Positions 2,329 through 25,416 of a stretch of DNA of 32,000 bases are shown here, one piece after another (the stretch's first letter is position 1; the number at the start of each line of letters is the position of its first letter). Under the pieces are notes generated by a model. The model ran no database searches. It saw only the letters and a list, made by a program, of their open reading frames with translations, and was not told the DNA's origin. The DNA lies in the NCBI GenBank assembly GCA_051414845.1, contig CP183313.1:217536-249535 (forward strand), read 5' to 3'. The position numbers were made by a program, and so were the translations under genes. The DNA comes from Neisseriaceae bacterium B1 (lineage in GTDB: Bacteria > Pseudomonadota > Gammaproteobacteria > Burkholderiales > Neisseriaceae).

Positions 2329-3054
2329 TTATAAACCTTTTCGCATAATCCGTTGCCCCAACGTGGCGGAAAGGCGGTTAATCCAATAGAGCCATTTGCT
2401 TTTGCCCGCCAAAATTTCAAAATGATTGCGTAAAAAATCACGCCAAAATTCTTCTGCTAATTCATCGGGTTGGATTTTTAAATTGGCATAACCTTTGCCC
2501 TGCGACAAAGGCGTGGCGACCATCGGCGGGAAAATTTCAAACACGCGCACCGAGCTGTTTTCCATTTGCCAGCGCAACACTTGCGAAAAACTGTGCAGCG
2601 CGGCTTTGGTGGCGCAATACATCGCGCAGGTTTCTTTCGGCACAATCGCTAAACCCGACGACACGTTAATCACGGCGGCTTCATTTTTCGCGGTCAAAAT
2701 CGGCAAAAATGCGCGCGTGAGTTGCGCGGGCGCGGTCAAATTCACGTCCACTTCCTGCGCGATTTCGTCATCGGTTTGCGCGTCCAACCGCTTGGTAAAT
2801 TGTATGCCTGCGTTGTTGATTAACACGTTCACATCGGCAAAATCGCGCACCAAACGGGCGCGGTCGTCGGCGTTGGCAACGTCCGCCACAACATAACGGC
2901 TGCCTGAAAGCTGCGCCGCCGCTTGTTGCAACACTTCTTCGCGTCGCCCGACCAAAATCACGTTGTTGCCATTTGCATGAAATTTTTTCGCAAGCGCAAA
3001 GCCAATGCCCGTCGCGCCGCCTGTGATAAGGACGGTGTGTCCTGTGGGATTCAT
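2329..3054 (-). CDS. Short-chain dehydrogenase/reductase (SDR) family oxidoreductase
   Basis: 241 aa with the N-terminal TGGATGIG Rossmann motif and the YCATK catalytic motif. Confidence 0.85.
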   Translation of the reverse strand: MNPTGHTVLITGGATGIGFALAKKFHANGNNVILVGRREEVLQQAAAQLSGSRYVVADVANADDRARLVRDFADVNVLINNAGIQFTKRLDAQTDDEIAQEVDVNLTAPAQLTRAFLPILTAKNEAAVINVSSGLAIVPKETCAMYCATKAALHSFSQVLRWQMENSSVRVFEIFPPMVATPLSQGKGYANLKIQPDELAEEFWRDFLRNHFEILAGKSKWLYWINRLSATLGQRIMRKGL

Positions 3055-4760: not shown

Positions 4761-5366
4761 TTACTCGCCTAATTCGCGCCTCAAATGCGCACTTAATTTT
4801 TCGCCCACTTCGTCTAAATCAGGTGCAGGCTGCACCAAATCGGCAATTTGCACCATTTCCATGCCCGCATAACCGCAAGGGTTAATCTGCTGAAACGGCG
4901 ATAAGTCCATGTTCACATTCAGCGCAAGTCCATGATAAACCGAGCCGTTTTTAATCCGCAAACCCAATGACGCGATTTTGCGTTCGCCTACATAAACCCC
5001 TGGTCTTTTTGGGTCGGCGGCAGCGGCAATGCCGTATTGGGCAAGTGTGGCGATAATCGCGTTTTCCAATGCGGAAACGATGTGGCGCACGCTTTGTTTG
5101 CGGCGTTTGAAGTCAATCATCGTATACACAACCAGTTGCCCCAAGCCGTGATAGGTAATTTGTCCGCCGCGGTCAATTTGCACCACAGGAATATCGCTGG
5201 GAAACAGCAAATGTTCGGGTTTGCCTGCCAAGCCTTGTGTGAACACGGGATAATGTTCCACCAGCCACAATTCGTCTTCCGTATCGGTGGTGCGGTTGGC
5301 GTTAAACGCCTTCATTTGTTCAAAAATGGGCGTGTAATCTTGTCGCCCTAATTGGATGATTTTCAT
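4761..5366 (-). CDS. lipB: Octanoyltransferase (lipoyl(octanoyl) transferase)
   Basis: [21 protein letters not shown]...[12 protein letters not shown]...[10 protein letters not shown] place the start at the internal Met (ATG 5366), not at the track's 5624, because the N-terminal extension is non-protein-like and overlaps ybeD. Confidence 0.92.
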
Positions 5367-9204: not shown

Positions 9205-9295
<91 letters not shown>

Positions 9296-9498: not shown

Positions 9499-12078
9499 AT
9501 GAGATACGATAAATTAACAGGTAAATTCCAACAGATTTTGCAAACGGCGCAAAGTTTGGCGTTAAACGCGGATAATGCGTATTTGGAAACGGCGCATGTG
9601 ATGAAGGCGTTGCTGGACGACAATAATAGTGGCGCGGCGGCGTTGCTCGTGAATGCGGGCGGCAATGTGGCGCAGTTGAAGCGTGATGTTCAGGCTGCCT
9701 TAAATGCGTTGCCTAAGGTTTCAGGCGCGGGTGGCGAGTTGAATATTGGCCGCGAGTTGAACAATATTTTTAATTTGACTGACAAGCTGTCGCTCAAAAG
9801 CGGCGATGCGTATATTGCTGGCGAGTGGTTTTGGTTGGCTCTGTTGCAGGAAAAGGGCAGCAGCGCGAAATTATTGAAGGATGTGGGCGTTACCGAACAG
9901 CAGTTGGTAGCGGCGATTGAACAAATGCGTGGAGGCGAAACAGTGGATAATCCGAATGCAGAAGACCAACGCGAGGCGTTGAAAAAATATACTTTGGACT
10001 TAACGGAACGGGCGCGCGAGGGCAAACTTGACCCTGTGATTGGGCGCGATGATGAAATCCGCCGCGCCATTCAGGTATTGCAACGTCGCACGAAAAACAA
10101 TCCTGTGTTAATCGGCGAACCTGGTGTCGGTAAAACGGCGATTGTGGAGGGTTTGGCACAACGCATTGTAAATGGCGAAGTGCCTGAATCCTTGCGTGGT
10201 AAACGTTTGCTGGTGCTGGATTTGGCAGCGTTGATTGCGGGTGCGAAATACCGTGGCGAGTTTGAAGAACGCTTGAAGGCGGTACTGAATGATTTGGCAA
10301 AAGACGATGGCAACACTCTGATTTTTATTGATGAAATTCATACTTTGGTCGGCGCGGGCAAATCGGATGGCGCGATGGACGCGGGTAATATGCTCAAACC
10401 TGCGCTGGCACGTGGCGAATTGCATTGTATTGGTGCGACGACTTTGGACGAATATCGTCAATATATTGAAAAAGATGCGGCGTTGGAGCGTCGTTTCCAA
10501 AAAGTGATTGTTGATGAACCTAGTGTTGAAGCAACTATTGCCATCTTGCGTGGTTTGCAAGAACGTTATCAAAATCATCACGGTGTGGAAATTACTGACC
10601 CTGCGATTGTAGCTGCGGCGGAATTGTCTAATCGCTACATTACCGACCGTTTCTTACCTGATAAGGCTATTGATTTAATTGATGAAGCGGCAAGTAGAAT
10701 CAAAATTGAAAAAGAAACTAAGCCAGAACAGATGGATAAACTTGACCGTCGTCGTATTCAGTTGCAAATGGAACAAATGCATTTGCAAAAAGAAAAAGAT
10801 GAGTCAAGTAAAAAGCGTTTAAGTGTAATTGATGAAGAATTGGCAAATATTAATAAAGAATATGCTGATTTGGAAGAAATTTGGAAGTCTGAAAAAGTTG
10901 TTGCAGAAGGCGGTGTTCAAATCAAGCAACAATTAGAAGAAGTCCAACTTAAAATTGAGAAGGCAAAACGCGAGGGTAATTTAGCATTAGCATCTCAACT
11001 GATGTACGAGGATTTGGATAAGTTAGAAAAACAACTTGCACAGTTAGATAATGTTTCAACTAGCGAAGCCAAAGCCAACAAACTCTTTCGCACCAAAGTC
11101 GGCGCAGATGAAGTTGCCGAAATCGTGTCGCGCATTACGGGCATTCCTGTGTCCAAAATGATGGAAGGCGAACGCGAAAAATTGCTGAAAATGGAAGACG
11201 TGTTGCACAAACGTGTGGTCGGACAAGACGAAGCCGTGCGCGCGGTGGCGGATGCGATTCGCCGCAGCCGTTCGGGTTTGGCTGACCCGAATAAACCGTA
11301 TGGCAGCTTCCTGTTTCTCGGTCCAACAGGTGTCGGCAAAACCGAATTGTGCAAAACGCTGGCAGGCTTCTTGTTTGATAGCGAAGAGCATTTAATCCGT
11401 ATTGATATGTCCGAATACATGGAAAAACACAGCATTGCTCGTTTAATCGGTGCGCCTCCAGGCTATGTCGGCTACGAAGAAGGCGGCTATTTAACCGAGC
11501 AAGTGCGCCGCAAACCGTATAGCGTGATTTTGTTGGACGAAGTAGAAAAAGCGCATCCAGACGTGTTCAACATTTTGTTGCAAGTGTTGGACGATGGGCG
11601 TTTAACCGATGGACAAGGGCGTACGGTGGACTTCAAAAACACCGTAGTCGTAATGACGTCCAACATCGGCAGCCAACACATTCAGGCATTGGGTGCGGAC
11701 GCGGCTTATGAAGACGTGAAAAACGCCGTGATGGGCGATGTGAAAAACTACTTCCGCCCCGAATTGATTAACCGTATTGACGAAGTGGTCGTGTTCCACG
11801 CGCTCGGTCAGGCACACATTCGCAACATCGCCCAAATCCAATTAGGCAGCCTGAAAAAACGCTTGGCAGCACAAGATTTGCACATTCAAATCTCCGATGC
11901 GGCTTTAGACATTATCGCTCAAGCAGGCTTTGACCCCGTGTACGGCGCACGCCCACTCAAACGCGCCATTCAAGCCGAAATTGAAAATCCGCTCGCCCGC
12001 GCATTGTTGGCTGGACAATATGCCGCAGGCAGCACGATTTTGATTAAGGCAGAAGGCGATAAGCTGGTGTTTGCTTGA
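9499..12078 (+). CDS. clpB: ATP-dependent chaperone ClpB
   Basis: [14 protein letters not shown]... with two AAA+ modules ([15 protein letters not shown] and [12 protein letters not shown]) and a coiled-coil middle domain. I place the start at ATG 9499, not at the track's 9424. An internal DUS 12-mer lies at 11844-11855. Confidence 0.97.
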
Positions 12079-15823: not shown

Positions 15824-15991
15824 TAATTTGACTAAAAAGATACTGTATTTCGTGTCAATTGAAATTATTAAAATAACTTGATTTAAATCAAATATTCTTA
15901 ACTTTTCTTGCTCTTTACGCGCGTTTAGCAGCGCACCACATTTTTGGTGTGTGCGTTGTTCTTACAGTTGCACCTTATTCAGGCAGTCTTT

Positions 15992-17008
15992 TCAGGCTGC
16001 CTGATTTTCTTTTGTGGGTTGCTCATGCAAGCTAGGATTGAACAAAGTGTCGTTTTTAATGCAGTGATACGCGTATTTCACCAGCTTAACCATCATCATC
16101 ACATACACTTTTTTCGGCGGTTTGCTTTGCACTTGTTTATCAAACCACGAGCGCCAGAGTTTGCTACGCGTACAGGCAACACGAGCGGGAATGTAGAGCG
16201 ATTTTCTTACGCTTCTATCGCCCATTTTGGACAGTTTAGCTTGCCCTTTGTATTTTCCTGATTGCCGTATTACAGGCGATAAACCAAGCCAACTAATTAA
16301 GTGTTTTGCCGTTGTGAATTTATCAATATCAATAAGCACAGCAAGCAGGATTTGTGAAGTTGTTTCGCCTAAGCCCGTTATGCTTTTTAAGATTTGTTGT
16401 TTGCGCTTTAAGTCGGCATTTTTGTCTATCAATCGTTGCATACGTTTTCGGCATTCCTCAAGTTGAATTTGCAAGGTATTTATAATCTTCTCAATCATTG
16501 TTTTGCTGTAGCCATCGGCAACGTACAGGCGATTCTTTTCCATGGTAAGCATGTTGTTCAGTTGTTCGCAACGTCGGTGCAGACTCTTTAATTCGGCTTT
16601 GCATTCACTTTCAGGCTGCCATAGTTCGGGCGTTTCGGCTTTTGCATATTGGGCAATGAGTTTGGCGTCTTGTTTGTCGGTTTTGATGCGTTTTAAGTGG
16701 TATTGGGCATAGTGTTTGATGATGCTGGGATTGATGACGCTGATGGCGATTTGATGGCGGTACAAATATTGGGCAATGGCGATGTAATAGACGTTGGTGG
16801 CTTCGCAGCAGACATGCAGAGATTGGGTGTCTATTTTCAGGCTGCATAACCATTCTAGAAGCTGCATAAAGCCGTTTTCGTCGTTGCTGATAATGATGTG
16901 CTTGTATTTGCTTTGAATGTGTATGCAGCAGTCTATTTTTTCTTTAGAAATGTCTAAGCCCAGCCAGTAGAGAATGCCGCTTTTTAAGTCGCTTTGTGCC
17001 ATGTTCAT
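15992..17008 (-). CDS. IS110/Piv-family (DEDD) recombinase/transposase, the terminal gene of the prophage
   Basis: YWLGLDISKEKIDCCI (N-terminal DEDD-type motif), KTDKQDAKLIAQYA, and ITGLGETTSQILLA...LISWLGLSPVIRQSGK (C-terminal IS110 domain). I place the start at ATG 17008 (TAAGG RBS), not 17059. The stop codon lies inside a DUS-like CAGGCAGCCTGA. Confidence 0.9.
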   Translation of the reverse strand: MNMAQSDLKSGILYWLGLDISKEKIDCCIHIQSKYKHIIISNDENGFMQLLEWLCSLKIDTQSLHVCCEATNVYYIAIAQYLYRHQIAISVINPSIIKHYAQYHLKRIKTDKQDAKLIAQYAKAETPELWQPESECKAELKSLHRRCEQLNNMLTMEKNRLYVADGYSKTMIEKIINTLQIQLEECRKRMQRLIDKNADLKRKQQILKSITGLGETTSQILLAVLIDIDKFTTAKHLISWLGLSPVIRQSGKYKGQAKLSKMGDRSVRKSLYIPARVACTRSKLWRSWFDKQVQSKPPKKVYVMMMVKLVKYAYHCIKNDTLFNPSLHEQPTKENQAA

Positions 17009-17140
17009 AAACCTTATGAATGCGGGCTTTTTTGCCCAAGATACTGTGATATTTATCAAAAATAGGAAACCGCACGCATCAATCTTTCTCTATTCATTTT
17101 CATAAAAGGCAGCTTATTACGATGTCGTGTGGTTTTGATT

Positions 17141-18325
17141 TTACTGAATATTCGCCAAGTTTTGCGCATTGCCTTCGTTGAGCGATGGGCGGGTTTCGCC
17201 ATTGAGTTGCGCAACATAAGCTTGATCATGCATAGGCTCGGTTTCAGTCGTTTGCGTTTGCTGTGGCTGTGTTTCCTGCTCGGGTGATTTGTAGGGATTG
17301 AACGGCATGCCATCTTCTAAATAGCTTTCGCACAATTCTTGCGAAATTTCCTTGATTTTTGTGAATTGGTTGGTGTAACAAGTGCATTTTTTGTCGACGC
17401 CAATAACGCACGCTTCAGGCCATTCCATGGTTTTAACTTGCCGTTGTCCATCGTACAGCGGTTTGGTTTCGGGACGTTCAGCCAATCGGGCAATAAAGTC
17501 TTCGGGTTTTGCGCCCAAGGTGTTTTGCATTTGATTTTGGGGTAAAGCTCCAGTTAGGCTTTGTGTCGCATTGCTGCCATTTAAAGTAGCAGGTGCGCTG
17601 GCAGTTGTGGTTTCAGTCGCGGTTTCTTCAGTTTTGCCGATGTTTTTGAGCAGACTGTAACTGAAATAAATCATAATAGGCATGAGAATAAAGACGACAG
17701 GCAGCACAAATACCCATTTTGTTACCTTGGTTTTGTTTTCTGTATGAATTTCCGCGGATTTGTACAAATCAAAGACTTTGTCATCCAGTTTATGAATTTT
17801 GGCAAAGGCATCTTTTGCTTGCGTGAGCGGATTGTTGGCGCAGTATTTCCATTCCAGTAGGGTACGCATACCGAGTTTGTTTTTGGCGATGTGCAGATGT
17901 TTATTGACCAGTCCACGCAGGTTGATGTCGATGTTTTTCGGGTTTTGGGTAAGAACGAATATATCAACGCCCAAGTGTCGGTGCGTATTGAGCCATGATA
18001 CATTGGGCGGAACTTGTGAACCGTTGGAACGAGCGGGCCATACGTCTTGAACTTCGTCAATAATCACAACTGAGCCATGGTTTTCAGGTTTTTTGATCCA
18101 TGTATGCATGTCGTGAAAGGAAAGTTGCTCGTCGGTGCTATGCGCTAACTCTTCTTTCAGGCTGCTGACGGCGATGTGAGGCAGCTCCAAACCTTTAATA
18201 TTCGTGAAGACTTTGCGCAGTTCGCCGTCAGGTGTCTTAAATATCGGGTCGTGCAACATCATGTGTACCATGTGTGCGGTTTTGCCAGCTCCGGGCGTGC
18301 CGGTAATGAGGACGATTTCTGCCAT
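17141..18325 (-). CDS. Zonular occludens toxin (Zot)-like / pI-type filamentous phage assembly ATPase
   Basis: MAEIVLITGTPGAGKTAHMV (Walker A), VVIIDEVQ (Walker B), a central TM segment (WVFVLPVVFILMPIMIYFSYSLL), and an AAGGAG RBS. Confidence 0.88.
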   Translation of the reverse strand: MAEIVLITGTPGAGKTAHMVHMMLHDPIFKTPDGELRKVFTNIKGLELPHIAVSSLKEELAHSTDEQLSFHDMHTWIKKPENHGSVVIIDEVQDVWPARSNGSQVPPNVSWLNTHRHLGVDIFVLTQNPKNIDINLRGLVNKHLHIAKNKLGMRTLLEWKYCANNPLTQAKDAFAKIHKLDDKVFDLYKSAEIHTENKTKVTKWVFVLPVVFILMPIMIYFSYSLLKNIGKTEETATETTTASAPATLNGSNATQSLTGALPQNQMQNTLGAKPEDFIARLAERPETKPLYDGQRQVKTMEWPEACVIGVDKKCTCYTNQFTKIKEISQELCESYLEDGMPFNPYKSPEQETQPQQTQTTETEPMHDQAYVAQLNGETRPSLNEGNAQNLANIQ

Positions 18326-18425
18326 GTCTGCTCCTTGCGAAATAGCGATTAAGTGGTGTGTGTTTTGCGCTAGAAATTAGATTTGTGGAATGTTTTAGGT
18401 TGGGTTAGCTGTGTGTTCCGAGACC

Positions 18426-18480
18426 GCCTAAATGTTTAAATATTTAAATCTTGGGGATTTAAATATTTAAACATTTAGGC
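18426..18480. repeat. Perfect hairpin: 25-bp arms with a 5-nt loop
   Basis: GCCTAAATGTTTAAATATTTAAATC-ttggg-GATTTAAATATTTAAACATTTAGGC, between the pVI-like stop (18489) and the zot start (18325). There is no flanking U-run on the minus strand. Confidence 0.85.
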
Positions 18481-18488
18481 TACCTGAG

Positions 18489-18782
18489 TTACTTTTTGCC
18501 GATTCGACTCGTAATTTTACTTACGCCAGTCATCGTCACATAAAACGTTAAACCGCCGAGCATGATGTTTAGTGCGGTGCCACCGCCAGCAATATAAAAA
18601 AGTTGCAAAGCATCTTGCGGTGCGCCAGTCAGATTAGCAGTGATTTGATGGCGGAAATTGGCAAAGATGGGCTCAATACCGTTGTAGGTAACCGCGGTAA
18701 TGCCCAATGCAACGAGCAGTTGCGCAATAATGCCTTTAGTGAGCTTACCCAGAGCGGGCAGCAGTGCGGCGAGAAATCTCAT
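18489..18782 (-). CDS. pVI-like minor coat protein candidate (DUF2523-like small membrane protein)
   Basis: 97 aa with hydrophobic segments and a basic C-terminus (SRIGKK), a GGAG RBS, and a position immediately upstream of the zot-like gene, as in other inoviruses. Confidence 0.6.
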   Translation of the reverse strand: MRFLAALLPALGKLTKGIIAQLLVALGITAVTYNGIEPIFANFRHQITANLTGAPQDALQLFYIAGGGTALNIMLGGLTFYVTMTGVSKITSRIGKK

Positions 18783-18863
18783 GGTACGACTCCGTGATAG
18801 GTTTCTGAATGGGATAGGTTTGAAGTGACAGGATAAATAGAAGTTACCGTAGAAACCCGTTAC

Positions 18864-19090
18864 GCATTTTTTTATCCTTTCGTTTCCGCTCTGAGGTTTC
18901 TGGGGTTTCGCGAGTCGAACATTCCGCCTATTTCAGGTAAAGGGGGTATCTGTAACGATTCGTAACAATTCGCTTGGGGCGAATTCTTACAAATCCTTAC
19001 AGAGACTCCCCCTTTACCTGAAATAGGCTACATGTTCTTTGACGCGCACCCCAGAAACCTCAGACCGGCTCCGAAACGATAAAAAAAAGC
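18864..19090. repeat. 227-bp imperfect palindrome (arms ~110 bp, centre cgcTTGGGGcg at ~18977)
   Basis: The left arm gcatttttttatcctttcgtttccgctCTGAGGTTTCTGGGGT..GCCTATTTCAGGTAAAGGGGG..GTAACGATTCGTAACAATTCG aligns with the reverse complement of the right arm (..CGAATTCTTACAAATCCTTAC..CCCCCTTTACCTGAAATAGGC..ACCCCAGAAACCTCAG..gataaaaaaaagc). Confidence 0.8.
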
Positions 19091-19106
19091 TTCACTAGAT
19101 GAAAAT

Positions 19107-19139
19107 GCCCTGCAAGGGGGATTGACCCCCTTGCAGGGC
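19107..19139. repeat. GC-rich perfect hairpin, 14-bp stem and 5-nt loop
   Basis: GCCCTGCAAGGGGG-attga-CCCCCTTGCAGGGC. Confidence 0.85.
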
Positions 19140-19186
19140 AAACCCCATTTCCTAGACACCCACCAAACCGATAGCCCCGAGCAGTC

Positions 19187-19297
19187 CAGAGATTGCAGCA
19201 ATGGACGCCAACAACTGCACCCCATAGGCAGGACGGCAGAGATTGCAGCAATAACACCAGAAACTGCACCCCATAGGCAGGACGGCAGAGATTGCAG
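19187..19297. repeat. Tandem direct repeat, 2.2 units of 49/50 bp
   Basis: CAGAGATTGCAGCAATGGACGCCAACAACTGCACCCCATAGGCAGGACGG (19187-19236), CAGAGATTGCAGCAATAACACCAGAAACTGCACCCCATAGGCAGGACGG (19237-19285), and the partial unit CAGAGATTGCAG (19286-19297). Confidence 0.9.
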
Positions 19298-19304
19298 GAC
19301 GTGG

Positions 19305-20798
19305 TTAGGCGTTGCGTAGGGCTTTGGTGGCAAAGAATGCCACGACCAGCCAAGCTACCGCAATCAGCAGACCGCGGAGCTTGGCTGCCACGTCGCACAC
19401 GTATTCATACGAGAACGCGAAGGTTTTGCTACTTCCAGCAATGGAAATGTCGAAACTCACGGGAGCAGGACAAACGCCGTTATCGGGAAAGATGGTATCG
19501 GGCTTGAAGTGAATATCGACCACTTTTTCAGGTATGCTGAAATTGGGCTCGGATGCGCTCGGTTTGTCGTCGGGCACTTTGTCACAAGCAAGAATGTCGG
19601 GATTTTTCTCACACAGATCTTCTGTGTCAGTCGGCGGTTGCTTGTCGTCGGTCTTATCCTTATCCCTACCAGTATCTGTAGCGGTGTCATCAGCGGTCGC
19701 GGTATCCGGACTGACAGCGGGCGCTTCGGGACTGTTGGGCTTTAGGTCGGGACGAGGGATAATCTCTTCTTCGATTTTACTGTTTTGACCGGGTGCGTCG
19801 GGGTCGTCTACCACTTTCCAACGTGCTTGCTCGGGTTTACCTGTTTCAGGATTGGTGTACGGATTGGATTGGGCAATTTGACCGGGCAATAGATATACTT
19901 TGGGCTCTGACCATGGGAGCGGGTCGTCGCCACCTGCTGCTTCTAACCATTTTTCAATGGCTTTATCCGCTGCTGCTTCGGCTACACCCATGAAGTCGGA
20001 TTCGGTGAAGGGGATTTTGTCCTTGATTGGAATCATTTTAACGGCTACGTCAGTGCCATAAAAATTACCACGAGTACAAGTACCTTGAGCATCATACCCA
20101 TCGGCTGGTTGACCGAACGCATCAACTGTTCGACATTTCTCAATAGCAGCCTGAGAAGCTTCTTGGAAACCTTTCACGAAAGAGGGATTGTAGCATTTGA
20201 GTTCTTTACATAGCGTGTCAAATTCAACATGTGATAAAGCTGCATGGGTTAAACCATTGTATCTTTGCTTTGTCATAATTACTGCATATGTTTCGTTGTC
20301 AGTGACAGTTTTACACATGCCTTGTTCACATTCTTCGGTATAGCCGTTTTCGCGGGCGAGCTCGTCGTAAATAGCATAGGCTTGTCCGACAAAGGGGATG
20401 GATTTGACTAAGCCTTTGGCTAATCCTTTTCCGACTGCTTTGAAGGCGTTCTTGGCGACGGCAGAGGTGACGGCTTTTTTGGGGATGGTTTGGGTTACTG
20501 TGCCTTTGAGTACGTCGGTTGAGACGGCTCCTGTGGTGCCTCTAAGCTTAGGCAAAATTTCAGCTTTCGTAGCATAAGTTGTACCAGTATTGTTATATCT
20601 CACAGTCGCTTCTAGATTTGAATTTTTAGCAATTTTTTCAACTCCATCTTTGTAATATCGATTATGAAGCCTTACTGTGCCATCACTCTGCCTAATTACA
20701 GCATAATCAACCTGCGCAAAAGCAGGAACTGTAAAAAAAAAGCTATACAGCAGAATAATTAAATTCTTTAAATAAACCCCGCGTTGGATGAATAACAT
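19305..20798 (-). CDS. pIII-like adsorption/minor coat protein candidate
   Basis: 497 aa. It has a signal peptide (LIILLYSFFFTVPAFA-QV), Cys-containing N-terminal domains, a Pro/Asp/Thr-rich linker (PDTATADDTATDTGRDKDKTDDKQPPTDTED) and a C-terminal membrane anchor (LLIAVAWLVVAFFATKALRNA). It lies between the coat cluster and the pVI-like gene. Confidence 0.65.
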   Translation of the reverse strand: MLFIQRGVYLKNLIILLYSFFFTVPAFAQVDYAVIRQSDGTVRLHNRYYKDGVEKIAKNSNLEATVRYNNTGTTYATKAEILPKLRGTTGAVSTDVLKGTVTQTIPKKAVTSAVAKNAFKAVGKGLAKGLVKSIPFVGQAYAIYDELARENGYTEECEQGMCKTVTDNETYAVIMTKQRYNGLTHAALSHVEFDTLCKELKCYNPSFVKGFQEASQAAIEKCRTVDAFGQPADGYDAQGTCTRGNFYGTDVAVKMIPIKDKIPFTESDFMGVAEAAADKAIEKWLEAAGGDDPLPWSEPKVYLLPGQIAQSNPYTNPETGKPEQARWKVVDDPDAPGQNSKIEEEIIPRPDLKPNSPEAPAVSPDTATADDTATDTGRDKDKTDDKQPPTDTEDLCEKNPDILACDKVPDDKPSASEPNFSIPEKVVDIHFKPDTIFPDNGVCPAPVSFDISIAGSSKTFAFSYEYVCDVAAKLRGLLIAVAWLVVAFFATKALRNA

Positions 20799-21042
20799 AA
20801 CACTTTTTTTCTTTAAAATTTAAAACAAAAAAAGAATTGTCTGGAAACATCGTTTCAATTTTTTCATCATTGAATTTGGAATAAAAATTCCAAAACCAAT
20901 ATGATTCAACGCATTCAGCAATATTCTTTTTCCTTATCAATTCACGATAAAAAATATAAGCAAAAGGCAAATCACGATACAGATAAGATTGCTGTAATTG
21001 ATACAACTCTTTTTCAGTAATAAACGGATCTAAAGTCTCCAC
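20743..21042 (-). CDS. Hypothetical 99-aa protein in an AT-rich island (GTG start), overlapping the pIII-like start by 56 nt
   Basis: An open frame with an AAGGG RBS-like sequence 9 nt upstream of GTG. The sequence is rich in F, Y, K and E with no recognisable motif. Confidence 0.35.
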   Translation of the reverse strand: METLDPFITEKELYQLQQSYLYRDLPFAYIFYRELIRKKNIAECVESYWFWNFYSKFNDEKIETMFPDNSFFVLNFKEKKCYVIHPTRGLFKEFNYSAV

Positions 21043-21099
21043 AATTAACCCTTTCAGGCAGCCACGCTGCTCTCTGTTAAAAAGGGTTAATCTACCACA

Positions 21100-21174
21100 T
21101 CACACGCTCAGCAGGAAGCACGCAATCATCGCAACCGCACCGAAACCCAATAAAAACCAAAAGTCAATTATCAT
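21100..21174 (-). CDS. Candidate 24-aa hydrophobic peptide (pVII/pIX-like size), not in the ORF track
   Basis: ATGATAATTGAC... encodes MIIDFWFLLGFGAVAMIACFLLSV followed by a stop. The ATG overlaps the last codons of the 103-aa ORF. Confidence 0.3.
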   Translation of the reverse strand: MIIDFWFLLGFGAVAMIACFLLSV

Positions 21175-21475
21175 CACTTGCCCCTACTGCGTTCATAGAT
21201 TTAATGAGATTTATCGCTGCTTTAAAGCCAAAAATAAAAACGGCAATCATCACGAGCATACTGCCCATTTGCGCCCCATTTTGAATTTGTTGCATGATGT
21301 CGCATTGCGGATGTGTGAGCTCAATTTTGTGTTGGTTTAAATACCAGCCATCGTCTTTTCGGACTGGACGGATAAGCTGCCCGTCGGCAGTGATAGTAGG
21401 GGGCATAGTGGACAAGATTAAGTCGTCTGCTTCGGTTTGTGTTGATACGCATTGAATGCCTACGCGATATGCCAT
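21164..21475 (-). CDS. Hypothetical phage membrane protein (C-terminal TM segment)
   Basis: 103 aa with a GGGGG RBS and the TM segment MLVMIAVFIFGFKAAINLI. It directly follows the major coat gene. Confidence 0.55.
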   Translation of the reverse strand: MAYRVGIQCVSTQTEADDLILSTMPPTITADGQLIRPVRKDDGWYLNQHKIELTHPQCDIMQQIQNGAQMGSMLVMIAVFIFGFKAAINLIKSMNAVGASDDN

Positions 21476-21493
21476 ATTGCCCCCTTTTTGGTA

Positions 21494-21751
21494 TTACTTA
21501 ACGGTTTTAATCATACTCCAAGCCAATTTAATGCCTTGGACTGCAACGATTACTGTTATGGACGCCATGCCAATGGCAGATACCAATACAATCATGCCTG
21601 AAATGGCATCTGCTACTTTTGTACCAATGTCTTCAAGTGATGCTGCTGCGTTTGCACCTGTTGCAACTGCGATTAAACTTGTAGCAACGGTGGCTTTTAA
21701 AATCGCTTCGTTGGTATTGAAGCCTTTTACTTTTTGCATGATTTTATTCAT
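21494..21751 (-). CDS. Major coat protein (pVIII-like) precursor
   Basis: 85 aa. A leader ending ..ATGANA-AA is followed by an acidic N-terminus (SLEDIGTKVAD), a hydrophobic core (MIVLVSAIGMASITVIVAV) and a basic C-terminus (KLAWSMIKTVK). There is an AGGAGA RBS. Confidence 0.8.
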   Translation of the reverse strand: MNKIMQKVKGFNTNEAILKATVATSLIAVATGANAAASLEDIGTKVADAISGMIVLVSAIGMASITVIVAVQGIKLAWSMIKTVK

Positions 21752-21837
21752 GACTTGTCTCCTAAAAATTAATGAAATGGGCGTGTCTCAAGGGGCTTTA
21801 CCGCCACGCCCGAACGGTAAACTTTATGTGCTTTGCA

Positions 21838-21924
21838 TTAGCTTAAAAGGATGTACATGCTGCCTAGAAATAGAAATAGGCAGATGACAAATGCTACGCC
21901 CAATTGCGTCAATGTGAATCTCAT
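21838..21924 (-). CDS. Candidate 28-aa hydrophobic peptide (pVII/pIX-like), not in the ORF track
   Basis: MRFTLTQLGVAFVICLFLFLGSMYILLS. Its ATG overlaps the TGA of the upstream 68-aa ORF as ATGA (translational coupling), and it lies just upstream of the major coat gene. Confidence 0.4.
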   Translation of the reverse strand: MRFTLTQLGVAFVICLFLFLGSMYILLS

Positions 21925-22127
21925 TGCATTTCCTTTTCTGATAGATAAAAACCGAAAATTAAGATGTCTTGTCCGTCCATTTCATCCAGCGCAGTTTCTA
22001 AGGCTGCCTGATAGTCGGTAAAGTAGCCGGCTTGATTGACGAGCGTGCAGGTTTCTACGCTGCCGATGCCGTCAGGTTTAAGAAATTCGCCTGTGTCGCG
22101 ATTTTGGACGATGTACACTTTATGCAT
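21921..22127 (-). CDS. Hypothetical phage protein, 68 aa
   Basis: An open frame with plausible RBS spacing, co-directional within the phage core operon. Confidence 0.5.
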   Translation of the reverse strand: MHKVYIVQNRDTGEFLKPDGIGSVETCTLVNQAGYFTDYQAALETALDEMDGQDILIFGFYLSEKEMQ

Positions 22128-22142
22128 GGTGTACCTGCTTTC

Positions 22143-22475
22143 TTATTTGTCGCCTTTGTCGTTGGGCGTTGGTTTGTTTGCTGTGCTATCCAATACGCGA
22201 ACGGCGGTTACGTTGAGTTTTTGCGTTTTACCGTTGGTGGTGATTTGCACGTTTAATTCCGCCATAAAGGGGAAGTTTTGTTTGGCGATGTGGTCGTAGT
22301 TGCTACTGTCGCCGTAGCGGTATTCGGACACGGTTTCGCCTTTGGCGTTACCTGTGCTTTCGTCCATCGGTGTCAAACAAATAAGTTTGGTGTTGTCGTA
22401 CTCGGGTCCGTTGGCATCTGGACGTCCTTTGTATTTTTTGGCACCAACGACTTTGACTTGAATTTTCATTTCCAT
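22143..22475 (-). CDS. Putative ssDNA-binding protein (gV analogue, assigned by size and position)
   Basis: 110 aa from ATG 22475 (AGGAG RBS 8 nt upstream). It is beta-rich and lies immediately downstream of Rep. The track ORF start at 22532 is rejected. Confidence 0.45.
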   Translation of the reverse strand: MEMKIQVKVVGAKKYKGRPDANGPEYDNTKLICLTPMDESTGNAKGETVSEYRYGDSSNYDHIAKQNFPFMAELNVQITTNGKTQKLNVTAVRVLDSTANKPTPNDKGDK

Positions 22476-22541
22476 GTTTACTGCTCCTATATGATTTAAA
22501 AAGGTACGACGATTACAGTGGCAGTCGCACAAGCCACATTC

Positions 22542-23849
22542 TTAAACTTGATTTGCCCAGTCGGGAACTTGGACGCTTTGGGCAATATGGTCGATTTCGG
22601 TAAACAGCATTTCGCGCACATAATCAAACGGTACGCCTGCTTCTTTGCGTTTGTTTTTACTCCACTGATACGCTGCCCATAAAAAGGCTTCGTCGCGTTC
22701 GTGTTGCTCGTTTACAGCGCGTTGATAGTCTTGGTCTAGCTTGGTTTCAGGCGGGATTTCGCTTTGTTGCTGATGTAGGTAAACAGTTTCATCCAGTTCT
22801 ACAGCCACAGCAGCAGCACATAAGCCTTTGGGTAAGCGGTCGTGGTCGGGTTTTAAACGCGCCCAGATTTCGGCTTCGGTTAAGTTCGGAAAGTAGGATT
22901 TGTACATATTCCATACGCCGCCAAAGGCGGTTTTTGCCCAGCTCTCTACTTTGTCTATGGTTTTTTCTACTTGTACGCGATGGCTTTTAATGCGGTCGGC
23001 TTTTTGCGTAAATTGCGCACAAATCGGATACACTCCACCAAAGTATTTGCCTGGCTCGCTTAAAATGTCGGTCGTGATGTGCATGTCACGGTTGCGAAAT
23101 TCGATTTCAAAACGAACCCATGGACTGTTTTTATCGCCCAGTTGTTTGCCTTTTTCATAAATTCGAACGTATTTTGCGCAATTGCGTGAGCCGATATAGA
23201 GTGTTCGCCCTGAACCGACTTCAAACAGTCGATTGCCGTTCTCATCAAAGGCGTTCCAATCACTGCCTACTTTATTCATTTTGGGACGGCGATTGGTCCA
23301 ACTGAAAGCGCCATCAAAATAGGCTTGTTCCATGCTGCCTAAATCAAATAGGCTGCCTGAAAGGTCGTCTATGGTTAAATCGGCGCGAGTAATGCGCGGA
23401 TTGATGGCTTCATCTAAAAATGGTTTTAAGCGTAGCTCCCAGCCCATTAAGGCTGCCTTACAACCTGCTGCGGTTAATTCCACGCATACCGAACCTTTTT
23501 GACTTTTACCGCCATAATGCACTTTGCCGTATAGGATTTCTTCTGTGCCCATTAAGTAACAATGCTCATAAAAGCGGTTACCGCTGGTTTTGGCTTTTTT
23601 CCAGAGCCCGAAACCGAAGATGTCCGCCAGTTGCTCGCTTAATACGCGCATAAAGTCTAATTCGCCTTTGAGTGGGCTTTCGGATAAGGCTTGCAGGGTA
23701 TCTTGATGGAACGTGAATGAAATTTGGTCTATGAATGCTGCATCATCAACGCCACGACGTAGCGGTACTTCTACGACTCTGCCTGTTTCAGTCATAATCA
23801 CTTGAGTGTAATGCTGTGCATTCGGTTTGATGGATTCAGTGCTTTTCAT
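22542..23849 (-). CDS. Rolling-circle replication initiation protein (Rep_trans / phage replication initiation factor family)
   Basis: 435 aa containing ..RITRADLTIDD.., ..GRTLYIGSRNCAKYVRIYEKG.. and ..WVRFEIEFRN.., which resemble the conserved blocks of the Rep_trans family as found in Neisseria filamentous prophages. It has an AAGGGG RBS and contains the only perfect DUS 12-mer in the prophage (23350-23361). Confidence 0.88.
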   Translation of the reverse strand: MKSTESIKPNAQHYTQVIMTETGRVVEVPLRRGVDDAAFIDQISFTFHQDTLQALSESPLKGELDFMRVLSEQLADIFGFGLWKKAKTSGNRFYEHCYLMGTEEILYGKVHYGGKSQKGSVCVELTAAGCKAALMGWELRLKPFLDEAINPRITRADLTIDDLSGSLFDLGSMEQAYFDGAFSWTNRRPKMNKVGSDWNAFDENGNRLFEVGSGRTLYIGSRNCAKYVRIYEKGKQLGDKNSPWVRFEIEFRNRDMHITTDILSEPGKYFGGVYPICAQFTQKADRIKSHRVQVEKTIDKVESWAKTAFGGVWNMYKSYFPNLTEAEIWARLKPDHDRLPKGLCAAAVAVELDETVYLHQQQSEIPPETKLDQDYQRAVNEQHERDEAFLWAAYQWSKNKRKEAGVPFDYVREMLFTEIDHIAQSVQVPDWANQV

Positions 23850-23907
23850 TCGTTCGCCCCTTGTGGTTTTAAATTACGGCTGCGCCGTCCTTTTCGTTCT
23901 TCCCCTA

Positions 23908-24228
23908 TTAGCCGTGGGGGTCGGCATTGACGGCGCAAGACGTGGCTGCTGTGTCAGCATGACTGCTTGCCACCGCAGCCACGTCTTGCGCCTGAAATTG
24001 CATACTGCTGTCATAAAGCAGAACAATCGGTAAGGACGTGCCGTATTGGGTTTGCAATGCAAATGCGCTGGCAATGATGCGTTGTAGGTCGGTATCAAAG
24101 CCGATGTCTTCGTGCATCCAGTCTTTGAAGTTGGTTTTGTAAAGGCATAAGCGGTAGCCATGTTCATGCCGTGTGATGCGGTAGTGGCTGAGTGCGGTGT
24201 TGCCTTGGTTGGTGCTGAGTAACTTCAT
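23908..24228 (-). CDS. Hypothetical phage protein, 106 aa
   Basis: An open frame upstream of rep, co-directional. Confidence 0.45.
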   Translation of the reverse strand: MKLLSTNQGNTALSHYRITRHEHGYRLCLYKTNFKDWMHEDIGFDTDLQRIIASAFALQTQYGTSLPIVLLYDSSMQFQAQDVAAVASSHADTAATSCAVNADPHG

Positions 24229-24314
24229 TTTTATTTCGCTACTTTCGTTTGCGTAGGTAATAAAATAGGGTTTTAACGAGCTCGCGGATTAGAGCGTTGA
24301 GAAAAACGTTCATT

Positions 24315-24527
24315 TCAGGATTGCTTAAAAAGTTTATCTTTCATGATTCGATACCATTGCAATGCTTCTAACCCCGACGTACCGAAATCCTTTAAAATTT
24401 TTTCGTCGCTGAAAGTGTGAATTTCAAACATAGCAATGGCTCTTAATCCATGTTCGCCATAATGCTTTTTAATCACGCTTAAATAGGCTTCTCTTAAGTC
24501 GTCTTTGAATTGTTGTTCATGTTTCAT
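24315..24527 (-). CDS. Hypothetical phage protein, 70 aa
   Basis: An open frame, co-directional. Confidence 0.45.
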   Translation of the reverse strand: MKHEQQFKDDLREAYLSVIKKHYGEHGLRAIAMFEIHTFSDEKILKDFGTSGLEALQWYRIMKDKLFKQS

Positions 24528-24585
24528 TTTTCAGGCTGCCTTAATAATTCGTTGAGTATGCCAATCTCGCCTATCGCTTGTGCAA

Positions 24586-24867
24586 TTAGCGCGATGTGGG
24601 CTTTTTTAAGGCTTGCTCTTGCGCTGCTTGGTTTTGTCTTGCGATTTCACGCCAGCTTACTTTTTTGTAGTCTATGGCGTTTTCAAATTGGTTTAGGTGT
24701 TTGTCTTCAAAGGCTGCGATTTTTTCCAGTGCTTCAGGTAGGGTTTGGCAGATGTGCATTTCGCTTTTGTCAGGCAAACCGTTTTTTATGGTAAGCAGGG
24801 ATACGCGGTAGTTTTGCGTTTCGGGATTGCGTCTAATCTGTACGTTTAAATCTTGGTTGTTTGACAT
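24586..24867 (-). CDS. Hypothetical phage protein, 93 aa
   Basis: An open frame whose start overlaps the end of the upstream ORF by 22 nt. Confidence 0.45.
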   Translation of the reverse strand: MSNNQDLNVQIRRNPETQNYRVSLLTIKNGLPDKSEMHICQTLPEALEKIAAFEDKHLNQFENAIDYKKVSWREIARQNQAAQEQALKKPTSR

Positions 24868-25151
24868 GGCATAATCCCTTTTTTTAAAAAATTTATTATG
24901 TGTTCTGCCATTTGCTCTATTTCAGTTTCCGTGGCGTCATTTGATAAATTTAAGGTTAAGAGTAAATCTGTTCCTATTCGTTTTGTCTTCGAACGAATAA
25001 AGTTGATTTCAATCACTTCTGCGTATGTGAAGCTGTTTACAGTTATTAGATACTGCTCATCAATTAACTTTTCGCCCCAAATGGTTTCTATTTGATATTC
25101 TGGATTTTTATCCTTTAGGCGTTGCTTGATTGTTGATTTCGTGAATGTCAT
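24846..25151 (-). CDS. Hypothetical protein, 101 aa (AT-rich island)
   Basis: ATG 25151 lies one nucleotide after the stop of the upstream ORF (TAAaATG). Confidence 0.45.
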   Translation of the reverse strand: MTFTKSTIKQRLKDKNPEYQIETIWGEKLIDEQYLITVNSFTYAEVIEINFIRSKTKRIGTDLLLTLNLSNDATETEIEQMAEHIINFLKKGIMPCQTTKI

Positions 25152-25152
25152 T

Positions 25153-25413
25153 TTAAAAACCCTTTGCACTTGTTGAAAAATAGTCTGTAGAATTAATTAA
25201 ATATTCTTCATAACGGCGATTTAATTCTTCAAAAGTGCTATCGTGAGCATCGATTGTTCTAAAATGACCAGCTTTAAAACATTCATAGCCATGAATTAAT
25301 GAATTAATTAAGATTTGACCCTTATAATTCGAGATTTCATAATTTGCGTTTAAAAGAGAAAGTTTTGAATCGATTTCGCTTAATTGAGCAGAATTTAATT
25401 TTTGATTTGACAT
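25153..25413 (-). CDS. Hypothetical protein, 86 aa (AT-rich island), first gene of the prophage transcription unit
   Basis: ATG 25413 is preceded by a CAAGGGG RBS that is part of a hairpin stem. Confidence 0.45.
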   Translation of the reverse strand: MSNQKLNSAQLSEIDSKLSLLNANYEISNYKGQILINSLIHGYECFKAGHFRTIDAHDSTFEELNRRYEEYLINSTDYFSTSAKGF

Positions 25414-25416
25414 GTT

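Follow-up and report, generated by a model that had tools for sequence, protein, structure and literature searches.

Bridge RNAs were described in 2024 for insertion sequences of ∼1.3 kb, as for IS621 of the IS110 group and its recombinase (Durrant et al. 2024, PMC11208160; Hiraizumi et al. 2024, PMC11208158). In the IS1111 group, an element-encoded seekRNA with target and donor segments guides the DEDD recombinase (Siddiquee et al. 2024, PMC11187229). In the Nf/MDA phages, the terminal gene is that of an IS110-type transposase, best matched in 2005 by IS621 (Kawai 2005; Bille 2005, PMC2212043; PMC7058167), and a circular replicative form has been documented for MDA (Bille 2005, PMC2212043; PMC7058167). 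No guide RNA for the Nf/MDA phages was found in the literature that we searched. Here we describe a filamentous prophage of this type in a 32,000-nucleotide stretch of Neisseriaceae bacterium B1 (GenBank assembly GCA_051414845.1, contig CP183313.1, positions 217,536 to 249,535), referred to throughout as the window and numbered from its first letter. Judged from its sequence and those of its relatives, the 9.7-kb prophage is very probably built like a giant IS621-type element, with a bridge RNA encoded just upstream of the recombinase gene, and its insertion looks like a natural RNA-programmed integration of a whole virus.

The prophage is read on the minus strand of the window in the order small open reading frames (ORFs), Rep, TspB-like, DUF2523, Zot, bridge RNA, and IS621-like recombinase. 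It holds an inovirus module (Rep_trans, TspB-like, DUF2523, and Zot) with a terminal IS110-family transposase, and its first phage ORF starts with the ATG at 25411 to 25413 (minus strand). The Nf1 to Nf4 and MDA prophages of Neisseria share the order Rep, TspB, Zot, and terminal IS110-family transposase, as well as the CT at the insertion point and a left end that begins with TATAT. Scans of genomes and of viral contigs yielded >100 loci with related recombinases (given L numbers here), and in most of them the phage genes and their order are the same. Over its full length, the recombinase shares 33% identity with that of IS621 (BLASTP alignment), and its best matches in PDB are the IS621 chain 8WT6 (E = 1e-49) and ISCro4. 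Residues D17, E67, D109, D112, and S248 (numbering of the 336-residue form) stand opposite D11, E60, D102, D105, and S241 of IS621.

The ends are read in the phage orientation, which is the minus strand of the window. In ∼20 close relatives, the right end follows the consensus TTGAC(A/G/T)-N6-A(C/T)AC(A/G)GTAT-CT, after which unrelated host DNA begins; the window has TTGACA-N6-ACAGTAT-CT. The left-end signature, CT-T(A/G)TATATT plus a GC hairpin, occurs once per prophage, including distant Nf types without a nearby GTATCTT, and is always preceded by the host species' own dialect of the DNA uptake sequence (DUS), often as a DUS inverted pair. At the homologous point the Nf1-type locus L119 reads ATTCCCGC-CT-TATATGATG, and the published Nf1 insertion point, at ATTCCCNC (then TATATG...), was confirmed by sequencing the circular form (Kawai 2005; Bille 2005, PMC2212043; PMC7058167). 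A genuine Escherichia coli copy of IS621 ends in ...TTGCAG-GCCATA-ACAGTAT-CT and CT-TGTATTAT..., with the same geometry and guide order as the phage. Because the right and left ends of the relatives, the Nf1 precedent, and the IS621 ends agree, we place the prophage at 15838 to 25554, ∼9.7 kb bounded by two CT cores. At both junctions, here and in the relatives, the core dinucleotide CT flanks the element without a longer target duplication. GTATCTT was considered as a crossover core at both ends and was dropped once the DUS flank and the IS621 ends had been compared, TATATATT and stem-loop 1 (SL1) being phage borne.

Joining of the two ends rebuilds a predicted sigma-70 junction promoter, a hallmark of IS110 elements. 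At the sequence level the joined ends give TTGACA-N17-TATATT, with the same spacing as TTGCAG-N17-TATTAT of IS621. The predicted circular junction is ...ACAGTAT-CT-TATATATT..., i.e., ...TTGACACGAAATACAGTAT-CT-TATATATTTGCCCC..., and the predicted empty site is aatttgactaAAAAG joined to CTGCCTGAAA.

The spacer between Zot and the recombinase gene is conserved in all relatives and folds into two units, so that the noncoding stretch upstream of the gene forms two stem-loops with internal loops. Unit 1 has a 12-bp basal stem (17121 to 17133 with 17069 to 17080) around an internal loop and a short distal hairpin; unit 2 consists of ACAGUAUCUU, the hairpin GGGC-A6-GCCC, and AUAAGG, followed by the start codon. 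A covariance model (R1) built from a 20-sequence leader set scored 107 bits at 17005 to 17135, its sole match in the window, and the minimum-energy fold agrees with it. More than 60 other prophages, some of them of the Nf1 type, gave a match to the same model immediately upstream of the recombinase. When 20 sequences were aligned with MAFFT and a hand-drawn structure was applied, 90.6% of cells were paired and 18 of 25 pairs showed compensatory changes; none of 500 shuffles matched these values, and slid controls dropped to 27 to 40% paired. Across 62 distinct model-aligned sequences, stems P1, P2, and P4 were 96 to 99% paired with a compensatory change in every pair, and the covariation score was 0.80 versus 0.23 for shuffles, figures from an alignment that leans to the structure it was built with; the figure from the 20-sequence MAFFT alignment is the more conservative one. 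RNAalifold on the raw MAFFT alignment recovered the target-loop stems only, the donor-loop stems needing the hand-drawn structure and the model-based alignment. A search of Rfam at the gathering threshold and at permissive E values returned only tRNA and noise and no matching family. In an Alysiella prophage (L003, 9880 to 9976), the donor-loop hairpin is enlarged and ∼60 extra nucleotides stand before the recombinase start codon, with the guides intact.

The phage RNA fits the bridge-guide rule throughout: its 5′ guides have the same sense as their DNA, and its 3′ guides are antisense to the core and the right half-site. Under the handshake rule, the two bases past each 3′ guide pair with positions 6 and 7 of the other DNA after strand exchange (PMC11208158). 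On the donor side, the guide ACAGUAUCU equals the right end ACAGTAT-CT at 9 of 9 positions, and the right donor guide (RDG) with its handshake bases (17011 to 17017) corresponds to the motif AACCTTAT and overlaps the Shine-Dalgarno region. Both donor guides covary in the relatives. The ACAG/ACGG variant of the left donor guide (LDG) tracks the same variant in the right end, while the RDG reads YAAG and tracks position 2 of the left end, being CAAG with TG (L003, L005, and IS621) and UAAG with TA.

The target-loop guides match their sites across loci as well. The left target guide (LTG) varies with the host, reading GCUGCCU in the Kingella type, ACGGCCU in Neisseria, UAGCCU in Eikenella, and CCUGCA in the king3 type, and in 12 loci it agreed with the cognate left host flank at 6.75 of 8 positions versus 4.67 for noncognate flanks. 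The right target guide (RTG) agreed with the right flank, which is not DUS, at a mean of 5.0 of 7 positions versus 2.9 (18 loci). Neither result was equaled in 20,000 permutations, a count that overstates independence since the loci are phylogenetically related. About 12 distinct RTG/flank pairs have at least six leading matches, e.g., UGGAAAAG with CTTTTCCA in L015, CTATAGT in L014, and CTGTCCC in L018; the match covers 10 of 10 positions in L015, 8 in L002 and L097, and 7 in L004, L005, L009, L013, L014, L018, L088, and L089. In the sister phages L096/L097 and L013/L089, a one-base change is found in guide and flank alike. The leader copies only the 6 or 7 junction-proximal DUS bases plus CT, not the functional 10- to 12-mer, which favors a guide over an uptake signal.

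These features suggest how the virus would integrate. In the replicative form, the right and left ends would be joined into the donor site ACAGTAT-CT-TATAT, together with the sigma-70 promoter. The donor loop (ACAGUAUCUU ... AUAAG) would bind this joined-end site, and the target loop (GCUGCCU ... GAGAAAG) would bind a chromosomal site made up of the last bases of a DUS, CT, and a T-rich stretch, often on the 3′ side of a DUS-pair terminator. For the guides in the window, the predicted target is TTCAGGCTGC-CT-TTCTCTAT. The recombinase would exchange strands at CT.

Bridge systems of the IS621 type are already known; the literature searched contained no report of one in a viral setting, of DUS-directed targeting, or of an extra donor-loop module. 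Here a virus of ∼9.7 kb appears to be moved by this machinery, which would amount to natural RNA-programmed integration of a large cargo. Taken together, the loci from Kingella, Neisseria, Eikenella, Suttonella, and a Cellvibrionales genome resemble a natural reprogramming series, in which one scaffold carries different target guides, each matching its own insertion site. It provides a testable mechanism for site choice by the medically relevant Nf/MDA phage group and ties phage integration to DUS, a hallmark of natural competence in the Neisseriaceae.

The likeness to IS621 extends from protein to RNA and DNA. Recombinase fold and catalytic residues are common to both; the RNA ends at the recombinase start codon, with the target loop first and the donor loop second; 5′ guides are same-sense and 3′ guides antisense, with a CT core in each; the donors are nearly identical (ACAGTAT-CT-T(A/G)TAT); the handshakes AU and GU are the same; and the junction promoter has the form −35 box, N13, CT, 2 nucleotides, −10 box (in IS621, TTGCAG-N13-CT and TG-TATTAT). 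At the place of the LDG, IS621 has ACAGUAUCAU. The phage-derived model aligns to nucleotides ∼36 to 177 of the IS621 bridge RNA with the guides in register. The two systems differ in several respects. The phage has ∼8.5 kb of genes between its left-end terminus and the RNA gene, compared to 14 nucleotides in IS621, so the junction promoter cannot directly drive its full bridge RNA. Its RNA is without the 5′ stem-loop of IS621, a second donor-loop-only module follows its junction promoter, its target is a DUS end and not a REP element, and its cargo is a virus. In one E. coli IS621 copy (L168, 1679 to 1800), the start of the left end and the first ∼70 nucleotides of the bridge RNA are tandemly duplicated (TGTATTATCCCTCCAGTGCAG... 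twice).

The published target of the Nf1 to Nf4 and MDA prophages is the dRS3 repeat, whereas the window and ∼20 relatives have a DUS end and a T-run. No dRS3 (ATTCCCN8GGGAAT) was found in the window's flanks, which consist of the DUS end and argH-proximal DNA. In L119, which is of the Nf1/MDA type, the model places the RNA upstream of the transposase (9871 to 9996), and the left junction given above (3020 to 3040) is a dRS3 half-site; at the LTG position the sequence is GUACGGCCAA, and a search of that whole phage for a segment matching dRS3 found none.

Several observations weigh against reading the locus as a bridge RNA system. At the window's own site, the left target matches at 6 of 7 positions plus the core (one mismatch to the LTG) and the right target at 2 nucleotides (TT) plus the core; target matches are also poor in L003, L090, and L092 (three to four loci besides the window). 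The window's flanks may be rearranged, or the insertion may have been off target. The P3 stem that closes the donor loop is weak (70% paired in the 62 sequences). The model's match to IS621 is weak (18.4 bits, E = 0.008 in 3.6 kb, filters off). The sequence immediately before the leader RNA yielded no promoter. A search for empty sites through ArgH relatives (Kingella kingae and metagenomes, 96 to 97% identical) recovered none, and none of the phage contigs in IMG/VR had terminal overlaps, i.e., no circular viral contig was seen. To these points are added the lean of the model-based alignment toward its own structure and the relatedness of the loci behind the permutation counts.

The original prediction, made from the letters of the window alone, had drawn attention to short repeats shared by the two ends of the phage and the recombinase leader. 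A direct sequence check found every listed motif where it had been reported: AAAAGATACT at 15835 to 15844 and 25500 to 25509, ACCTTATTCAG at 15972 to 15982 and 25461, AACCTTAT at 17010 to 17017 and 25460 (with a single reverse-strand copy at 26365), AAGATACTGT at 15837 and 17038 to 17047, and the palindrome TTGATTTAAATCAA at 15878 to 15891. The 8-mer AAGATACT has three copies in the 32 kb, all on the plus strand (15837, 17038, and 25502), compared to an expected mean of 0.29, and none of 100 dinucleotide shuffles reached three. The exact 11-mer ACCTTATTCAG has two copies and is less secure, since with one mismatch allowed 6 of 100 shuffles gave two matches; its copy at 15972 is not kept in related phages. 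Because the repeats are kept at the same three positions in ∼20 related prophages, most of them are taken to be real and functional. Extension of the 10-mers to imperfect 16-mers, as had been proposed, found no support. Read against the relatives, the motifs are putative donor guides, the DNA that they would recognize, and a second donor-loop-only module. The proposal that those in the leader (17009 to 17140) are guide segments of a bridge RNA was borne out by the covariance model, which places the RNA there; the 3′ tail of the recombinase gene, named as the other possible seat of such an RNA, fell away, being 6 to 355 nucleotides long in the relatives with only ∼54 conserved.

Other explanations of the same motifs were weighed. 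A perfect 10-bp direct repeat lies close to each end of the phage genes, and many related prophages have GTATCTT near both ends; the AAAAGATACT copies at 15835 and 25500 could thus be the attL/attR core of a conventional protein-guided crossover, the leader copy being a spare or regulatory binding site. This is very unlikely indeed, for the 45 bp beyond the 25500 copy (TATATATT and SL1) are kept in all Nf-type prophages, including those without GTATCTT there; they occur once per prophage, never alone, and host-dialect DUS starts only beyond them. Moreover, the bases left of the repeat differ between the copies in the window, L013, and L035, the homologous Nf1 boundary was set experimentally at ATTCCCNC, ahead of TATATG..., and the IS621 ends align with CT-TATATATT and not with the 25500 copy. 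Only the copy at 15835 to 15844 crosses a junction, running from the right end through the CT core into host TTT. The true right-hand junction of the window lies 44 bp past the 25500 copy, with CT at 25553 to 25554, where the DUS meets TATATATT, and the motifs at 25460 to 25510, formerly assigned to that junction, lie inside the phage in the second donor-loop-like module. The original prediction also allowed for a stand-alone IS110-type element of ∼1.19 kb (15847 to 17037) inserted in a AAGATACTGT-containing phage site, with the leader and tail copies as target duplication. The direct repeat ACAGTATCT does flank the recombinase gene, and L010 has such a CT-flanked mini-element without phage genes. 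The idea fails on the leader copy, which lies inside one conserved RNA whose target-binding loop (17069 to 17133) falls outside the proposed limits; about half of the relatives and IS621 have ACAGTATCAT there, which lacks the CT core and hence is no target duplicate. The leader copy is not followed by a TATATT −10 box, and the arrangement is fixed in >60 prophages, which leaves the stand-alone element scarcely credible.

A layout as in the IS1111 group would put a seekRNA in the 141-nucleotide tail 3′ of the recombinase gene (15851 to 15991), which is noncoding, contains hairpins, and has a copy of ATAAGG at 15972 to 15982. IS1111-group seekRNAs lie downstream of the gene, in elements with long subterminal inverted repeats, whereas the phage RNA lies upstream and neither trait was seen. 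The relatives' tails, 6 to 355 nucleotides long, are unrelated but for the last ∼54, the fold is not above shuffles (z = −1.1), the motif at 15972 is not conserved, and all four guides are already placed upstream of the gene, so that we hold this layout to be extremely unlikely. It is also very unlikely that the leader is only a translational control element or a DUS carrier and that the protein picks the site, as proposed for Piv. In favor of this reading are the overlap of AUAAGG with the ribosome-binding site, the likeness of the LTG to part of a DUS, and the very high frequency of DUS in such genomes; however, the leader has the 6 or 7 junction-proximal DUS bases and CT only, the RTG covaries with a right flank that is not DUS, and the same YAAGG motif with the same covariation is found in the left-end module, where no gene starts.

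Under the bridge RNA reading, the left-end module (Table 1) would be a second donor loop. All close relatives share the series A(C/A)(A/G)GUAUC(U/A)U, a lineage-variable hairpin, a spacer of 8 to 14 nucleotides, (U/C)AAGG(C/U)U, and a strong hairpin with a T-run. The MAFFT alignment of left ends was too poor for column-wise counts, and folds of single sequences were used. The module shows the same CAAGG/UAAGG switch as the leader and sits downstream of the junction promoter and upstream of the terminator hairpin. Its handshake bases are GC in most loci, the equivalent of the U167C change with which IS621 recombined better in vitro (PMC11208158). IS621 is functional in vitro with its target loop and donor loop on separate RNAs, and the module hints that a separate donor-loop RNA may have a use in nature. 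We tentatively suggest, with considerable doubt, that it might yield such an RNA, mainly from the junction promoter of the circular form. A still broader scheme, which we rate as rather unlikely, would have a natural split bridge RNA system for a virus: a full bridge RNA plus a donor-loop RNA made only by the circular form, integration licensed by circularization, and a target loop that copies the host DUS end as a host-range or safe-harbor determinant for inoviruses of the Neisseriaceae. At 25518 to 25545 (minus strand), a weak sigma-70-like site (TTGCCC-16-TAAAAT, 9 of 12) would start transcription at the module's 5′ guide even when the phage is integrated.

Table 1. Features of the prophage and its flanks in the window (sequences in the phage orientation)
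Feature	Positions	Strand	Basis or remark
Host right-target flank (RT), TTTTAG	15832-15837	-	12 nt past argH stop codon; not conserved among loci
Nf/MDA-type prophage	15838-25554	-	Pfam and PHROG matches; gene order in >12 related loci; ends from conservation and IS621-end homology
Right-end core CT (AG on plus strand)	15838-15839	-	Direct reading; ..GTAT-CT here in every related locus
Left donor (LD) ACAGTAT, final 7 nt of phage right end	15840-15846	-	Same sequence as IS621 right end
−35 box TTGACA at right end, 13 nt ahead of core	15853-15858	-	TTGAC(A/G/T)-N13-CT in all related right ends
Noncoding right-end tail	15859-15991	-	Only last ~54 nt (~15840-15893, including palindrome 15878-15891) conserved
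IS621-like DEDD/serine recombinase, 338 aa (336 aa from second ATG)	15992-17008	-	Pfam PF01548 (DEDD_Tnp_IS110) and PF02371 (Transposase_20)
Bridge RNA gene, 131 nt: target-binding loop, then donor-binding loop, to recombinase start codon	17005-17135	-	Covariance model R1
Donor-loop handshake guide GU	17011-17012	-	Host GC; same as wild-type IS621 G166/U167 opposite tG6/tC7
RDG AUAAG	17013-17017	-	Reverse complement of CT+TAT of left end
Distal stem-loop P4 of donor-binding loop (GGGCAAAAAAGCCC)	17024-17037	-	4/4 pairs compensatory; 96.4% of cells paired
LDG ACAGUAUCUU (= AAGATACTGT)	17038-17047	-	Same sense as LD + core, right end ACAGTAT-CT
Target-loop handshake guide AU	17082-17083	-	Matches LD positions 6-7 (AT); same as IS621 A81/U82
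RTG GAGAAAG	17084-17090	-	Reverse complement of core + RT; only CT+TT match here
Distal stem-loop P2 of target-binding loop (UUUAUGAAAAUGAA)	17093-17106	-	4/4 pairs compensatory; 97.6% of cells paired
LTG GCUGCCU	17107-17113	-	Same sense as host flank GCAGC-CT; one mismatch here
Basal stem P1 of target-binding loop, 5′ strand	17121-17133	-	Partner 17069-17080; 12/12 pairs compensatory; 98.6% of cells paired
Zot	17141-18325	-	Pfam/PHROG
DUF2523	18489-18782	-	Pfam/PHROG
TspB-like gene	19305-20798	-	Pfam/PHROG
Rep_trans	22542-23849	-	Pfam/PHROG
Hairpin SL3 and T-run, probable terminator of short left-end transcript, just ahead of first phage ORF	25420-25453	-	Sequence and fold
Donor-loop-only module	25460-25510	-	Same layout in 10 related left ends; fold z = −5.05
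Module 3′ guide AUAAGGUU	25460-25467	-	Module part
Module hairpin SL2	25476-25501	-	Stem sequence differs in each of 10 related left ends
Module 5′ guide AAGUAUCUU (= second AAAAGATACT copy)	25502-25510	-	Module part
Left-end hairpin SL1 (GCCCC..GGGGC)	25526-25543	-	In all Nf-type left ends
Left-end terminus TATATATT (right donor, RD)	25545-25552	-	Once per prophage in all Nf-type loci, always adjoining host DUS
TATATT, −10 box of predicted junction promoter	25545-25550	-	Within left-end terminus
Left-end core CT (AG on plus strand)	25553-25554	-	Sequence reading and relatives
Host left-target flank TTTCAGGCAGC, end of DUS	25555-25565	-	Other loci carry own species' dialect here

The tail 3′ of the recombinase gene opens with a DUS inverted-repeat hairpin (15979 to 16004) that begins inside the end of the gene, and it had no match in Rfam. 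Its conserved last ∼54 nucleotides include the palindrome TTGATTTAAATCAA, and some relatives have a second TTGAC box ∼40 nucleotides upstream of the terminal one; this end may be a protein-binding or promoter element. The mini-element of L010 (Eikenella glucosivorans, 9940 to 11060) is ∼1.1 kb long, has CT on both sides, and consists only of the 3′ half of a donor loop (GTCTACAGACACAATATAAGG), the recombinase gene, and a right end (TTGACTTTTGATTACGGTAT), with an Eikenella DUS end on its left and without a target loop. Its circle junction would rebuild a full donor loop, and the element may depend on a resident phage. In L093 (∼5100 to 5160), recombinase and RNA belong to the Kingella L005 type, whereas the closest sequence resembling a right end (ACGGTATCT) belongs to the Eikenella type; its flank does not match the guide, and the locus may be a chimeric contig or a second element.

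The host's ArgH is 96 to 97% identical to that of K. kingae. The uptake sequence AGGCAGCCTGAA and its dyad partner AGGCTGCCTGAA have 27 copies each in the window, mostly as overlapping dyads TTCAGGCAGCCTGAA (e.g., 1124 to 1141, 15991 to 16002, and 25553 to 25564), a pattern reported for Simonsiella muelleri. Despite the ArgH identity, the window has no copy of the K. kingae dialect, king3. Exact-protein look-ups linked the recombinase to one 1.5-kb contig and gave no match for ArgH. In the ArgH relatives, argH is followed by other genes and by intergenic DNA unrelated to that of the window. The nearest relatives of this region (L082 to L087, compared to 15824 to 15837) have a 103-residue ORF or an ADH gene after argH, and the argH C terminus differs. 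The arrangement of argH, prophage, a gene for a 247-residue protein, and recQ in the window may reflect rearrangement. A tRNA gene at 9208 to 9295 on the minus strand (Rfam RF00005, 57.8 bits) is unrelated to the prophage.

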